This document shows positions 17,141 through 23,033 of a DNA stretch of 64,000 nucleotides, piece by piece. This stretch comes from Candidatus Thorarchaeota archaeon. GTDB taxonomy: Archaea > Asgardarchaeota > Thorarchaeia > Thorarchaeales > Thorarchaeaceae. Position numbers and translations under genes: made by a program. The stretch spans positions 1-64,000 of the forward strand of contig RDOC01000005.1 of the NCBI GenBank assembly GCA_011364985.1. Reading direction: 5' to 3'. The stretch's first letter is position 1. Each line of letters starts with the position of its first letter. The notes under the pieces were generated by a model. It did no database searches. It had not been told where the DNA came from and saw only the letters and a list, made by a program, of their open reading frames with translations.

Positions 17141-17432
17141 AGCTCATTGAGTGATAGATTAGCTAACCTAGGAAGCAGCGTTCTGGAATTAGATTATTTC
17201 TCCAAGAACGGGATATTAAGTGTGGATTACGCACGAAATAAAAGGGAACCATGACCTATGCACAATTGTGAACCACTGTACACCGGACTGCAGAAATCTC
17301 TCATGAAAGAATTCAGAATGGTGCTCGCATCAAATCCTGATTTTTCTTCTTCAATGAGACAGCTCTAAGCCCTACGTTATGCTTTTAACTTGGGCTATGC
17401 AATTGGATGTAAGTCCCGAAGAAGGAGAGGAA

Positions 17433-17807
17433 ATGATGCAGCTTGATTGGATCATCTCGTATATTCAGGCAGCAATCGAGTTTGTTTTGATATTCACAGT
17501 TATTTTCATGATAGTAAGCATAATGTCATTGGGTTATGCTTTGAATTATGTCGGTGGAAAGAACACCGGCTTCTTTTCATCATCAATCTCGGCGATACTG
17601 ATGGTCATTCTGGTCGTATTCATTCCATGTTTGGGCTGCATAATTGCTCTGTACCTACTCAAGCTTCGCCACAATATTAGCTGGGGAAAGGCAATCATTG
17701 CTGTACTACTTGCAGGGATCATAGCTATTGCAGCCTATATTGTAGTTGCATTCCTGTTCTTGGGTGGTTTGACAGCGATATCTGCACTAATACCATTCCT
17801 CCCGTAG
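17433..17807 (+). CDS. Hypothetical integral membrane protein
   Basis: GGAGAGG RBS before ATG 17433; 3-4 TM helices. Confidence 0.75.
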   Translation: MMQLDWIISYIQAAIEFVLIFTVIFMIVSIMSLGYALNYVGGKNTGFFSSSISAILMVILVVFIPCLGCIIALYLLKLRHNISWGKAIIAVLLAGIIAIAAYIVVAFLFLGGLTAISALIPFLP

Positions 17808-17831: not shown

Positions 17832-18521
17832 GTGAGGGATAGAATGCACGAGGATAATGAGGAAGACAGAATTCCCTGTGAAGAAATACTCCTCGATGAG
17901 AGAAGAGGGAAGCTGCTCTTCAACAGCGGACATATACTTAGACATCCAATTCTGTTCCTAAGGATTCTGGGCCCCCTCTTGACCGCGCATCATCCATATT
18001 GCACAGAATACGAAGGGCACGTCTTCACGTTCAGACGAAGGCAATGGTGTATTGGCTGCTTCTTTAACACTCTCTCATTCTTCACAGTGCTTGGACTTCT
18101 TGTATTTGGATGGCTTGCTGCTTCCTTTGCCATGAACAGATTCAGCCTCTTTTGGGGAGCAGTTACCTTAGTGACGATTTCCTTTGCCATGAGCAGCCTG
18201 AACCCAACCGACAATAAGTCATTGAAGATTCTTTCCAAGTTGATTCTTGGTTCATCATTTGCATTCATGACCTGGGCAATAATCATTGCAGACGGTTTTG
18301 AGGCGTATATTGAAATTAAAGCTGCAGTAATACTCTCGCTCTATCTGCTCCTAGTATTCGTAATGGCGATTCGAAGAATAACTCAAATCGAAAAGGTCTG
18401 TAAGGGATGCAAGCACAAAATGCGATGGAGTAGATGCCCAGGTTTCAAGATAGTCCTCTGTCCCTTGGTTGAACAGAGCTTTCTCGTGCCTGAGGATTTG
18501 GAAAAGATTCATATTGAATAG
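17832..18521 (+). CDS. Cys/His-rich membrane protein (DUF2085-like)
   Basis: HHPYC...H...WCIGCF, 4 TM helices, C-terminal CKGC...CPG. Confidence 0.7.
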   Translation: MRDRMHEDNEEDRIPCEEILLDERRGKLLFNSGHILRHPILFLRILGPLLTAHHPYCTEYEGHVFTFRRRQWCIGCFFNTLSFFTVLGLLVFGWLAASFAMNRFSLFWGAVTLVTISFAMSSLNPTDNKSLKILSKLILGSSFAFMTWAIIIADGFEAYIEIKAAVILSLYLLLVFVMAIRRITQIEKVCKGCKHKMRWSRCPGFKIVLCPLVEQSFLVPEDLEKIHIE

Positions 18522-18627
18522 AAGATTGAATTGGTTACAGGTACAAATTGCCTCTGCACAATCCTTTTATGAGAGGGCATGTGCTAAACGAATTAGTACC
18601 ATAAAACACCGCTAGAGGTAGTTTTCG

Positions 18628-18966
18628 ATGGGCAAGGAAAAAATACTTGGTGCATTGATATTCATCTTCGCATTGTTGGTGCTTATATACTACACATGGG
18701 CACTGGTTCTACTTGAGAATGGCTTAACCGGCCCTGGACTAGCTGCCTGGGTGGAATCGCTGGTTGGAACTGAGGGACTATGGCATGATATCTTGCTTCC
18801 CGACAGAATGTTCCTAATCATTCTGCCAATCTGGGCAGCTGCTGTGCTAATCATGGTTATTGCAATGTGGATCGGTTGGACCATGCTAACCACTCCAGCT
18901 CCAGAGCCACTTGAAGACTTTGACTTTGATGAGGAAGAAGTTTCAGAGACAAAGCCAGAGGAGTAA
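18628..18966 (+). CDS. DPM2-like two-TM protein
   Basis: LVLIYYTWALVL and LLPDRMFLIILPIWAAAVLIMVIAMWIGWTMLT resemble eukaryotic DPM2 (YYT..V.L; FLPR..A..IP...I..VMLK); GAGGT RBS. Confidence 0.7.
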   Translation: MGKEKILGALIFIFALLVLIYYTWALVLLENGLTGPGLAAWVESLVGTEGLWHDILLPDRMFLIILPIWAAAVLIMVIAMWIGWTMLTTPAPEPLEDFDFDEEEVSETKPEE

Positions 18967-19000: not shown

Positions 19001-19023
19001 GGGCCCTACGGGCCCTTCTTCCT
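19001..19023 (+). terminator. Hairpin terminator
   Basis: GGGCCC-TAC-GGGCCC followed by TTCTTCCT, between convergent genes. Confidence 0.65.
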
Positions 19024-19078: not shown

Positions 19079-20467
19079 TCAAACAGGAATTGGCTCCTCT
19101 CCAGATTCAAATGCCTTGTAGATGAAGTACATGCAAAGACCTAAGAAGATAATGATGATTGAGATGTTCAGCATCACTCCTGGGCCGGTGTCTTCATTCA
19201 ACACAAAATAGGGTATGTTGTTTTCAGCCCAATTCGTAAGACCAGTAAAGAAACTTGCAATCTCGACCACAACGGTCATCATAAACAGAGATAAACCTGC
19301 CAAGCCAAAATACCGGCCTCTCATCATCCAGGGATGGTCCCACCAAGATCTGGTTTCTGTGGTCGCTCTTCGTTCCAGATGATACCAGCCGAGTCCTCCT
19401 GCAAGGCAGACTGGCAGATTAAGAGAGTAGAACGCCAAATGATGAAGGGGAGTAGGAAAACCAATACTCTGTATATCGAAGAAATGATACCAGATGGAGA
19501 AGTAGAAGATTTGGAAAAGAAGAATATGGTATGATGCCTTCCCTATCATAGCAATATGCCTTGAAACTCTGCCTGTGACATCAGCAGGTAAGTACTTCAT
19601 TGCTAATAGGAAAAATAGAGCAACATATGGATACATCAAGAAAGTGTAGTCACCCCAGATAAGTCGACGAATAGTAGTTGCATCGGCAACAAGAACGCGA
19701 TAGTCGAGAAACTGGTAGGCAAAGGTGTATGCCAGACTAAGAGGGAAAGCAATCCACATGAATAGATTATGTTTGCTTTTGATATCAAAATCACTTGAGA
19801 ACCAGAGACCCAATCCAACAGCAGGCAGATAGAAGAGAATATTGAGTCTGATGGCGCTAACCATAAACGCTACCGTGGAGCTTGTGTAGGTATAGGCGAC
19901 ACCATTCCAAACCTGTGGAGCATTGAAGAATAGAAAGACGCCAAGGAGAAGCTCGCTGATGAAGCAAAGACTCACCGTGAGCTTTGGACGGATAGTATAT
20001 CCCTTGTACACCAAGGGAAAAACAAGAATAGATGTGAAGAGCACCGGGATAAACCAGTCACCCGGTCCTGAGAAAGGCGGTAGTAGAAGAAGGGAATACT
20101 CGCTGAAGTATATAGAATTGAAGTAAAGACCTAGAAGCCACAAAGCCGCATATAGAACAATGAAAGGCGCGACATATCTTATGAACTTCTTTTTGAAATA
20201 GCTCCATGAGTATAGCTCACGCAGGGTCGTGCCTCCACTCCTTCGAAATGATAGCCCCATATTGAATCCCATAACTATCAGAAAGAAGGGAATAGATATT
20301 CGTTCCCATAATGGTCCTCCAATAGCGTGTTTTAGGTCCCAAGTAAGACTATGGTCCAGAACAACCAAAGCGATGGCAAATGCCTTCAGAGCATCAATCG
20401 CGAAGTAGTTGCGACGCTCAGATGAAATATCTTCTTCAGGAGAATGTTCTAGAGAGGGTTTGAGCAT
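19079..20467 (-). CDS. Acyltransferase-3 family membrane protein
   Basis: IDALKAFAIALVVLDH, IPFFLIVMG, IGKASYHILLFQ. Confidence 0.85.
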   Translation of the reverse strand: MLKPSLEHSPEEDISSERRNYFAIDALKAFAIALVVLDHSLTWDLKHAIGGPLWERISIPFFLIVMGFNMGLSFRRSGGTTLRELYSWSYFKKKFIRYVAPFIVLYAALWLLGLYFNSIYFSEYSLLLLPPFSGPGDWFIPVLFTSILVFPLVYKGYTIRPKLTVSLCFISELLLGVFLFFNAPQVWNGVAYTYTSSTVAFMVSAIRLNILFYLPAVGLGLWFSSDFDIKSKHNLFMWIAFPLSLAYTFAYQFLDYRVLVADATTIRRLIWGDYTFLMYPYVALFFLLAMKYLPADVTGRVSRHIAMIGKASYHILLFQIFYFSIWYHFFDIQSIGFPTPLHHLAFYSLNLPVCLAGGLGWYHLERRATTETRSWWDHPWMMRGRYFGLAGLSLFMMTVVVEIASFFTGLTNWAENNIPYFVLNEDTGPGVMLNISIIIIFLGLCMYFIYKAFESGEEPIPV

Positions 20468-20515: not shown

Positions 20516-21874
20516 CTATGCCAAGTCAATGGCTTGGTGGATGAAATCCGCACCCAGCTTGACAAGACGCTTAGCCTCTGCCTGTGTCTTGCCTTCTGCA
20601 AAGCATCTCCAGAGGGGTTCTGTTCCAGAGGGTCTCATTAAGACCCAACCTTCATCAAATACTAGCTTTACGCCATCCAGAGTAATACGGTTCTGATCCT
20701 CTGTAAGCTGTAGTAGTATATCGAGAATCTTGCTCTTCTTCTCAGACGGAACTTGGACCTTTGTTTTGTTACTGAAGTAGGTCGGAAGCTCGGCAACAAG
20801 TTGGGAAAGAGTCTTTCGCTCAACAGCCATTACTTCAACAATTTGTGCTGCTGTCATTGGCCCATCACGCACGGATTGATGCGGAGGATAGAACACGCCT
20901 CCGTTTTCCTCGCCACCGAGATCTGCTCTCAGCTCCTCCAGTTTGTGAGAAACAACGACACTACCAACAACGGTCCACTCAATCTTTGCGCCCGCATCTT
21001 TCGCGACATCTTCAATAAGACGCCCGCTACTAATGGGTGTTACGAGAGTAGAGTTTAGCCTTCTCCGTAACACACGAGAAGCAATAATGGCGAAAGACTG
21101 GTCGCCCCAGAGCACTGCACCATTCTCGTCCACAAATGTTGCGCGATCAGCATCTCCGTCATGGGCAATTCCAATATCTGCATTTACTGCCTTGACTGTT
21201 TCACTTAGCTCGGAAAGGTTCTGTGCAGTTGGCTCTGGAGGCCGTCCCGGAAATGCACCGTCCAGCTGAGAATTAAGGGAAATGACCTTGCAACCAAGGT
21301 CACGCATTAGTTCAGGTGTGGCCAAAGCGCCAACGCTGTTGGCACTGTCTACAACAACTACTAGCTGAGCCTTGTGGATTTCGCCTTCATTCACATGCCG
21401 TTTGATTCCGGCAATATACTCCCGGAGGGCTGTTTCATATCTCTGGTTCTTGCCCACCTTATCCCATGTGCAAATCTTGAATTCTCTGTTGAAGTAGCAG
21501 CCTTCAATCTGCAGTTCGACTTGGCGTGAAACCTCGATTCCATTGGCACCCATGACCTTGATACCATTGAACTCTCCGGGATTGTGGGAAGCAGTGATCA
21601 TGATTCCTGCGGCAGCATTGAGTCGAGGGACCATGAACTGCAGTGTAGGAGTGGGGGCCGGTCCGATATCAATCGTATGGCATCCAGTAGACAGTATTCC
21701 AGATACAGCAGCGTTTAGGAACATCATTCCACCCCTTCGCGAGTCACGCGAAACAACAACTCGACCAGGTCCAAGGATTGTACATGCAGCCCGTGAGATA
21801 TTTAGAACCATCTCTACGGATAGGTCTTTATTGATAGTCCCGCGTACTCCATTTGTACCGAAGAGGTGTCCCAT
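20516..21874 (-). CDS. glmM: Phosphoglucosamine mutase / phosphomannomutase
   Basis: LFGTNGVRG, ITASHNP, DGDADR, GGEENGG, RPSGTEP; substrate specificity uncertain. Confidence 0.9.
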   Translation of the reverse strand: MGHLFGTNGVRGTINKDLSVEMVLNISRAACTILGPGRVVVSRDSRRGGMMFLNAAVSGILSTGCHTIDIGPAPTPTLQFMVPRLNAAAGIMITASHNPGEFNGIKVMGANGIEVSRQVELQIEGCYFNREFKICTWDKVGKNQRYETALREYIAGIKRHVNEGEIHKAQLVVVVDSANSVGALATPELMRDLGCKVISLNSQLDGAFPGRPPEPTAQNLSELSETVKAVNADIGIAHDGDADRATFVDENGAVLWGDQSFAIIASRVLRRRLNSTLVTPISSGRLIEDVAKDAGAKIEWTVVGSVVVSHKLEELRADLGGEENGGVFYPPHQSVRDGPMTAAQIVEVMAVERKTLSQLVAELPTYFSNKTKVQVPSEKKSKILDILLQLTEDQNRITLDGVKLVFDEGWVLMRPSGTEPLWRCFAEGKTQAEAKRLVKLGADFIHQAIDLA

Positions 21875-21948
21875 TGATCTTCACTCGCTGCGCGTGTGAT
21901 AGATATCGACTTAAGAGTATTGACTACCAGATTGGAATGGGTGTAGAT

Positions 21949-22521
21949 ATGCCGATCTTCGGGCAGAAAGACAAGGAATACCAGACAATTGCCAAGATGC
22001 TGGCAGAGGGATATAATCAGGATGCAATCACCCGTCTTCGCAAGTTTCGAGAAGAAAACCACAAGCACACCAACGCGATGGTAACTCTTGCTGTTGCTCT
22101 AATACAAGCACAAAAACAACCTAAGATAGACGCTCCAGAAACAATCGAAGCGTTGGCACTGCTGGACAAGGCTACTGAGATGAAACCAAAGGATCCAGTC
22201 CCACGATTCAACAAGGGAGTATGTCTTCGAAGCTTAGGAATGCTAGAGGAAGCCCTTGAATGCTTCCAGTCTGCCCTGGCCCTCCAAGAACGTTTTTCCC
22301 CTGCAATTCTACATATGGCTGAAATAAACTATGAGCTGGAAAGATGGGAGAACGCAGTGATGCTAGCGCGTCTTGCCTTAATTCGAGACCCTGCTCTCGA
22401 AGCGTCCCTGAATTGGGTGCCAACAGCAATGAGAAAGGCAGGATATCTTGACGAAGATGGAAATGTCGGCGACGTTCCTTGGAAGGACGAAAAGATAGTA
22501 GACTGGCGAAACTGGGTCTAG
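21949..22521 (+). CDS. Tetratricopeptide repeat protein
   Basis: FNKGVCLRSLGMLEEALECFQSAL and neighbouring TPR-like repeats. Confidence 0.85.
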   Translation: MPIFGQKDKEYQTIAKMLAEGYNQDAITRLRKFREENHKHTNAMVTLAVALIQAQKQPKIDAPETIEALALLDKATEMKPKDPVPRFNKGVCLRSLGMLEEALECFQSALALQERFSPAILHMAEINYELERWENAVMLARLALIRDPALEASLNWVPTAMRKAGYLDEDGNVGDVPWKDEKIVDWRNWV

Positions 22522-22622
22522 AAACGTGTAACACACTTCACAAGGTTTAAATGACATCTACCTCGACACAACATAGCTTAGTGTGGTCATTGGCCACGTT
22601 ATATACCATCTCAGGTGATTAC

Positions 22623-23033
22623 ATGTCCTCAAAGAGCGAACCCATGTATCGCGGCTACAAGCTCTCTGATTTGGTCCAGATGAACATGGATACACTGATT
22701 GAGCTGCTTCCCTCACGTAGGAGAAGGACTCTCAGGCGAGGCCTTCCACAGCGTCAGAAGAAACTCCTCATGAAACTCAGAGCGGCTCGCAAGGCCAAGA
22801 AGAAGGGAAAAGACATCATTGTCAAGACACATTGCCGCGACATGGTCATTCTTCCGGAGATGGTCGACCTCACGATCGGAGTCCACAATGGCAAGGAGTT
22901 TGTCAAGGTTAAGATACTGCCGCAGATGATTGGGGAAGTATTGGGATCGCTCTCGATACCGACTCGACAAGTCAAGCATGGCAGCCCTGGTATAGGCGCG
23001 ACAAAAAGCAGCGCTTACGTGCCTCTAAAATAG
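22623..23033 (+). CDS. rps19p: 30S ribosomal protein uS19 (S19P)
   Basis: YRGYKL...RRRRTLRRG...KTHCRDMVILPEM...HGSPGIGATKSSAYVPLK; GGTGA RBS. Confidence 0.97.
   Translation: MSSKSEPMYRGYKLSDLVQMNMDTLIELLPSRRRRTLRRGLPQRQKKLLMKLRAARKAKKKGKDIIVKTHCRDMVILPEMVDLTIGVHNGKEFVKVKILPQMIGEVLGSLSIPTRQVKHGSPGIGATKSSAYVPLK

Follow-up and report, generated by a model that had tools for sequence, protein, structure and literature searches.

DPM2 and PIG-P are small and poorly understood subunits of two enzymes of the ER, Dol-P-Man synthase and GPI-GnT, which feed N-glycosylation, O- and C-mannosylation, and GPI anchoring. The human DPM1 protein has no transmembrane (TM) domain and depends on DPM2 and DPM3. 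The cytoplasmic C-terminal peptide of DPM3 is described as the element that docks the TM-less catalytic subunit (Ashida et al., 2006). The type-III Dol-P-Man synthase (DPMS) of P. furiosus (5MLZ) carries two GtrA-like TM hairpins fused to its catalytic domain; these hairpins were described as topological counterparts of DPM2 and DPM3, with TMH1 and TMH3 resembling DPM2 (Gandini et al., 2017). A later survey of type-III enzymes, also the source of the DPMS motif definitions used here, makes no mention of Asgard archaea (Gandini et al., 2026). For Dpm1, a proteoarchaeal origin was argued to be probable (Lombard, 2016).

According to an older paper, no accessory proteins of GPI-GnT had been found in archaea. 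In the supplement of Kay et al. (Nature, 2025), a PF07297 tree places Asgard sequences as sister to eukaryotic DPM2 plus PIGP, in which nFECA diverges from Asgard and a pre-LECA duplication then yields DPM2 and PIGP (Kay et al., 2025). The homology of the protein described here is thus not new.

This protein, named X, is a 112-aa hairpin protein of the DPM2/PIG-P type encoded in a Thorarchaeota (Asgard) genome, within the window, that is, the whole stretch of 64,000 nucleotides that was analysed. X is, like DPM2, a two-TM hairpin of similar size, collinear with the DPM2 profile over positions 2-27 and 39-71 of 75, and DPM2 is the best Pfam match both for X and for 24 of 37 Thorarchaeota orthologues. 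It differs from DPM2 in a loop about 16 residues longer, in a conserved 25-residue acidic tail that follows TM2 at the point where the DPM2 profile ends, in a score of 23.4 bits against a cut-off of 27.3, and in its occurrence in a genome where DPM3 was not found. PIG-P (Gpi19) shares with X the two TM helices and a conserved cytoplasmic segment directly after TM2, but X reaches only 18-22 bits against its profile, the last third of which has no counterpart in X, and PIG-A-type and PIG-C partners are rare or were not found in the searched Asgard genomes.

DPM3 (PF08285), the tether of human DPM1, provides a working analogy, with two N-terminal TM helices and a cytoplasmic C-terminal peptide, but the tail of X is acidic and predicted to be disordered, not a coiled coil. 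X gave no significant sequence match to PF08285, and two members of the wider family gave weak full-length matches (E 0.011 and 0.034). In contrast to the fused hairpins of the type-III synthases, X is a separate gene, and its profile detected no similarity to 5MLZ or to the 362-aa type-III forms of Asgard archaea, including their TM domains. With type-II Dol-P-Man synthases, the window genome has in common a TM-less GT2 of the DPM1 type; the difference is that no DPM3-type tether was found in this genome (74% complete), where PF08285 gave no match at E ≤ 10.

The X gene

X is a real gene under purifying selection and not an ORF that arose by chance. Its homologues at E ≤ 0.01 number 159, the nearest relatives being named Thorarchaeota, and comparison with Thorarchaeota orthologues gave pN/pS values of 0.13-0.31 at pS 0.6-0.9, synonymous sites being near saturation. 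X occurs as a single copy in the window genome (1.7 Mb, 74% complete), in which no paralogues were found. The features of the gene and of its immediate surroundings are given in Table 1. A search of NCBIfam with X gave no match. Some members of the family are labelled "transcriptional regulator" in their source annotation; this label was rejected because X is a membrane hairpin without a DNA-binding domain. No RNA runs containing the stretch were listed, and two marine-sediment DNA runs that contain it may be the source of the assembly.

Table 1. Features of X and its surroundings, in positions of the window
Feature	Position	Strand	Basis
X coding sequence, 112 aa	18628..18966	+	ORF; 159 homologues; Pfam DPM2 and PIG-P matches; pN/pS
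GAGGT, putative ribosome-binding-like box, 8 nt 5' of the X ATG	18615..18619	+	sequence reading
TM helix 1, residues about 5-30	18640..18717	+	AlphaFold2; hydropathy; conservation; DPM2 profile positions 2-27
Variable loop, predicted extracytoplasmic, residues 31-59	18718..18804	+	alignments A1 and A2; split DPM2 match
TM helix 2, residues 60-88	18805..18891	+	AlphaFold2 helix 60-88; DPM2 profile positions 39-71
Tail motif TTPAPEPLEDFDFDEE, predicted cytoplasmic, residues 88-103	18889..18936	+	conservation; codon variation; PIG-P alignment
GC-rich terminator-like hairpin with T-rich tail, between convergent genes	19001..19015	not assigned	
Acyl_transf_3 membrane acyltransferase	19079..20467	-	Pfam
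Phosphohexomutase (archaeal GlmM/PMM family), convergent with X	20516..21874	-	TIGR03990

Relationship to DPM2 and PIG-P

X matches two Pfam families and no others, DPM2 (PF07297; E 7.5e-5) and PIG-P (PF08510; E 2.7e-3), in both cases below the gathering cut-off: the DPM2 score of 23.4 bits compares with 27.3, and the PIG-P score of 18 bits (21.9 in a six-frame search) with 39.3. The match to the DPM2 profile falls into two collinear parts that cover both helices, positions 2-27 lying on residues 4-28 and positions 39-71 on residues 56-88. In the six-frame search, positions 9-87 of the 121 of PIG-P align with residues 10-106, tail included. Among the 37 Thorarchaeota orthologues, 24 match DPM2 and nine match PIG-P, and nothing else is matched at E < 0.01.

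A profile built from the Thorarchaeota orthologues retrieved 200 cluster representatives at E ≤ 1e-3. One of them, P0127, represents a cluster of proteins from Asgardarchaeia MAGs. It is 36% identical to X (BLASTP E 7e-14) and lies above both curated cut-offs, with 40.8 bits for PIG-P (39.3 required) and 35 bits for DPM2 (27.3 required); homology at the level of the DPM2/PIG-P superfamily is thus well supported. Precomputed PF07297 matches are carried by the homologues P0006, P0016, P0018, and P0021, and many fused forms carry PF08510. Of the 70 members of the wider family (alignment A2), 27 match PIG-P and 19 match DPM2; at this level PIG-P is no more distant than DPM2. A further 21 matches (E < 1e-3) are to Phage_holin_3_6, which shows that composition inflates individual E-values of TM hairpins.

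Homology was accepted on the collinearity of the DPM2 match, its exclusivity within Thorarchaeota together with that of PIG-P, the member above both cut-offs, and the independent publication. Taken together, the profile evidence makes it very probable that X is homologous to DPM2 and PIG-P, distantly and at the superfamily level. The initial annotation had described X as a possible DPM2 homologue; the superfamily relation was borne out by P0127, whereas the assignment to DPM2 specifically was not, PIG-P being at least equally close across the wider family. The best explanation is that X corresponds to the form that preceded the eukaryotic duplication into DPM2 and PIG-P.

Structure searches with X were uninformative. 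Foldseek with the X model gave no match in the PDB, and a wide structure-alignment search (VIA-align) returned nothing beyond generic helical hairpins (Z at most 5); a structure search of the ESM Atlas listed a eukaryotic PIG-P cluster at TM 0.47. Sequence and profile searches of the PDB that used X, A1, and A2 as queries retrieved neither a DPM2 nor a PIG-P chain, and the only matches, to photosystem I PsaF and to TM1-TM2 of DHHC proteins (E 0.005), were treated as compositional. Alignment A2 matched the DHHC palmitoyltransferases 6bms_A and 6bml_A over the TM1-TM2 hairpin and a W..W..TPP.P linker (E 0.005-0.03). This resemblance is probably compositional, although the collinear TPP motif is curious.

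Hairpin architecture and the acidic tail

Two TM helices had been read from the letters alone, and two are given both by a hydropathy scan (residues 10-28 and 61-79) and by an AlphaFold2 model (pLDDT 84, built on 37 homologues), in which helices span residues 3-30 and 60-88, the loop between them forms two short helices, and the tail is disordered and of low confidence. TM helix 1 contains an invariant G8 and the YYTW motif (Y21 Y22 T23 W24), and TM helix 2 contains ILPIW and the family signature WIGWTM. The motifs pointed out at the start are all present, LIYYTWALVLL in TM1, LLPDRMFLIILP...WIGWTML in and around TM2, and the acidic tail PEPLEDFDFDEEEVSETKPEE. A loop longer than that of DPM2 had also been noticed; it measures 28 residues, more than in the DPM2 profile, and its greater length is confirmed by the splitting of the DPM2 match into two collinear pieces. 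X is predicted to form a two-TM hairpin with both termini in the cytoplasm.

The tail motif TTPAPEPLEDFDFDEE is invariant in the alignment of 37 Thorarchaeota homologues. Across 25 Thorarchaeota genomes each of its positions is encoded by two to five synonymous codons while the peptide is unchanged, and selection thus acts on the peptide and not on a nucleic-acid element. The form of the tail found throughout the family is TTPPPxP[IL]EE, TTPAPEPLEDFDFDEE being that of Thorarchaeota, and in the signature of the X family WIG[WY]T[ML]xTTP precedes P.P[IL]E and a stretch of acidic residues.

Natural fusions of 275-315 aa (P0181, P0268-P0286) consist of the hairpin followed by C-terminal HHH_5 and DUF4332 domains, and many of them have a precomputed PIG-P match. 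In a search of longer proteins, HHH_5 plus DUF4332 was the only fused form of X found, and no fusion of X with a glycosyltransferase was detected. The C-terminal position of the HhH/DUF4332 domains suggests that the tail lies on the cytoplasmic side.

Distribution and gene neighbourhood

The X profile matches in 108 of 121 sampled Asgard genomes, mostly in single copy, and in 49 of the 51 of high quality. It also matches in 187 of 201 sampled genomes of Thermoproteota (the phylum containing a Bathyarchaeia genome), often with two to four copies. A signature scan of one genome per species identified at least 350 X-type loci, with named sources that include Thor-, Hermod-, Hel-, Jord-, and Atabeyarchaeia, Bathyarchaeia, Nitrososphaerota, and Geothermarchaeales.

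Both neighbours named in the initial annotation, an acyltransferase-3 gene (Acyl_transf_3) and a phosphohexomutase (PGM/PMM family), are present beside X. The argument drawn from them holds for the mutase, which reaches 535 bits with the archaeal GlmM model TIGR03990 (cut-off 439 bits) and is conserved beside X in about 20 of about 26 Thorarchaeota-type loci. It fails for the acyltransferase, which is not a conserved neighbour (found in few related loci only, cluster c48) and is thus probably outside the X system. The usual Thorarchaeota order is ETF-beta (-), X (+), and GlmM/PMM mutase (-), then TPR and uS19-like genes, to which the window adds the acyltransferase on the downstream side of X and, on its upstream side, two ORFs for membrane proteins. 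As the mutase is convergent with X in Thorarchaeota, the two genes are not co-transcribed.

The two additional ORFs (17379-17807 and 17832-18521), located between the ETF genes and X, encode membrane proteins without significant Pfam match. Their slot is empty in most Thorarchaeota relatives, and the product of the second has a Cys-rich C-terminus, CKGCKHK..CPGFKIVLCP. In 18-19 Thorarchaeota loci, X shows synteny with genes for a TPR protein (21853-22521) and for a uS19-like ribosomal protein (22551-23033) whose N-terminal extension is eukaryote-like, and in loci L021-L024 the TPR gene comes immediately after X. TPR domains often bind acidic C-terminal peptides, which makes the TPR protein a possible partner of the X tail.

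In Hermodarchaeota-type loci, X is divergent from a gene for a 353-aa NTP_transferase+LbH protein, whose best NCBIfam match is mannose-1-phosphate guanylyltransferase (255 bits, below cut-off). The order in Bathyarchaeia is AdoHcy hydrolase, X, and a 250-aa NTP_transferase, all co-directional and separated by gaps of 36-79 bp. Genes for two further conserved proteins, 544-582 aa in length (L058:9169-10800 and L058:10865-12610), extend this operon-like string, and neither protein has a Pfam match at E < 0.01. The nucleotidyltransferases beside X gave no NCBIfam match above cut-off, sugar specificity lying below every cut-off. Three lineages place X beside sugar-nucleotide supply enzymes, and a DPMS-like GT2 occurs within 8 kb of X in only four of 79 loci.

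A candidate partner glycosyltransferase

The window genome encodes a 232-aa Dol-P-Man-synthase-like GT2 (G000:C11:319631-320329). Its gene lies in a glycosylation island (G000:C11:303000-322900, L082) together with a second short GT2 (C11:307423-308133). The island also encodes three GT4s, an NTP_transferase, a flippase (Polysacc_synt_3), a PMT_2-like GT-C of 878 aa, and two large proteins that match no Pfam family.

The best PDB match of the 232-aa GT2 is P. furiosus DPMS 5MLZ (E 3.5e-40, residues 3-220 against 26-245 of 374). Its AlphaFold2 model (pLDDT 87.6) matches 5MLZ in Foldseek with E 1e-22, an rmsd of 2.2 Å, and 36% identity; the query TM-score of 0.88 and the target TM-score of 0.58 indicate that the catalytic domain and one terminal helix are covered, and not the four-helix TM domain. 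A hydropathy scan found no TM segment, and the C-terminus forms a basic amphipathic helix. The protein is motif-complete for DPMS, with DADFSH (DAD.SH), GSRY (SRY), R..S, and K.VLE (K.(L/V)LE), and an NCBIfam search of the GT2s gave no match above cut-off.

Homologues of this GT2 in other Asgard genomes are mostly open frames of 224-278 aa. Motif-complete short DPMS were found in 44 of 121 Asgard genomes (E ≤ 1e-20), compared with 108 of 121 for X, and the nearest short GT2s of other Asgard families deviate in the DPMS motifs. Type-III DPMS of 362 aa with four C-terminal TM segments occur in the Asgard genomes G029 and G048 (L103:991-2079 and L104:1014-2102). The type-III motif DADLQHPP is exact in both proteins, and X coexists with them in both genomes.

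Possible functions of X

The initial annotation had suggested a regulator of the ER-glycosylation type; X may act in this way on a DPM synthase or GPI-GnT, but neither a DPM3 nor a PIGA-domain match was found in its genome (74% complete). By analogy with the eukaryotic systems, the likeliest role of X is tentatively proposed to be that of an accessory or anchor subunit in the membrane, serving a peripheral polyprenyl-phosphate glycosyltransferase, a reading to which we assign a probability of roughly 30-40%. X would be a small accessory subunit embedded in the membrane, and its conserved acidic cytoplasmic tail would be a docking element that recruits, stabilises, or regulates a TM-less peripheral glycosyltransferase acting on polyprenyl phosphate. 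In the window genome the likeliest partner would be the 232-aa Dol-P-Man-synthase-like GT2, and the two proteins together may constitute a eukaryote-like multi-subunit (type-II-like) Dol-P-sugar synthase. Consistent with this proposal, X repeatedly adjoins PMM/GlmM or sugar-1-P nucleotidyltransferase genes, and a TM-less, motif-complete DPMS-like GT2 is encoded in the same genome. Against it, X is far more widespread than motif-complete short DPMS and coexists with the 4-TM type-III DPMS in G029 and G048, and the searches revealed no operon of X with a GT2, no X-GT fusion, and no DPM3 homologue.

A broader version of the anchor proposal, drawn from the same analogy, is more doubtful. Asgard and TACK archaea may already have a split Dol-P-sugar synthase of the eukaryotic style, in which a single DPM2/PIG-P-type hairpin would anchor and regulate a TM-less DPM1-type GT2, its invariant acidic tail playing the part of the DPM3 peptide in humans; the functions of DPM2, PIG-P, and possibly DPM3 in the ER would then come from one core archaeal subunit.

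It is also possible, if somewhat unlikely, that X serves as a small, conserved scaffold in the membrane and that its acidic tail recruits another cytoplasmic partner, perhaps unrelated to Dol-P-sugar synthesis. Examples would be the TPR protein encoded in synteny with X, a factor of the HhH/DUF4332 type, or some other membrane enzyme that is universal in TACK and Asgard archaea. The near-universal presence of X (108/121 Asgard and 187/201 Thermoproteota genomes), broader than that of any single GT2 orthologue, would agree with a scaffold, as would the lack of synteny with GT2 genes, the joining of HHH_5 and DUF4332 in the only natural fusions, and the TPR gene, syntenic in 18 Thorarchaeota loci and directly after X in L021-L024. 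However, the only recognisable relatives of X, DPM2 and PIG-P, both serve lipid-linked glycosyltransferase complexes, and X lies repeatedly beside sugar-nucleotide genes in three lineages.

A PIG-P-like role, in which X would belong to an archaeal GPI-GnT-type enzyme with a PIG-A-like GT4 transferring GlcNAc from UDP-GlcNAc to archaetidylinositol, is improbable. The wider family matches PIG-P (27/70) more than DPM2 (19/70), the PIG-P profile covers the conserved tail, the ESM Atlas lists the eukaryotic PIG-P cluster at TM 0.47, and the conserved neighbour in Thorarchaeota is a GlmM-type mutase, which feeds the UDP-GlcNAc pathway. The PIGA domain, however, gave no match in the window genome or in six other genomes of its family, and was found in seven of 61 Asgard genomes, with only two above cut-off; PIG-C (GPI2) was found in none of the 61, a weak result, as the prokaryotic control genomes also gave none. 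Given that X is near-universal, most genomes that carry it are without PIG-A-type or PIG-C partners, and the GPI-GnT alternative for Asgard archaea is weak.

Least probable of all is a convergent or compositional resemblance, with X as an unrelated two-TM protein, for example a holin-like one: X itself stays under both Pfam cut-offs, Phage_holin_3_6 matches 21 of 70 wider-family members (E < 1e-3), the structure searches were uninformative, and the PDB profile search found only the DHHC TM1-TM2 region, but the two-piece DPM2 match is collinear and full-length, only DPM2 and PIG-P match among the Thorarchaeota orthologues, P0127 is above both curated cut-offs, and an independent published phylogeny puts Asgard sequences in PF07297.

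Implications

If the single archaeal counterpart of DPM2 and PIG-P belongs to the core genes of Asgard and TACK archaea, it would provide a simpler system for the role of the hairpin in anchoring, regulation, or lipid handling. The invariant tail motif of X offers a concrete handle for the identification of its partner. As a core gene, X would also bear on the origin of the multi-subunit glycosylation machinery of the ER.
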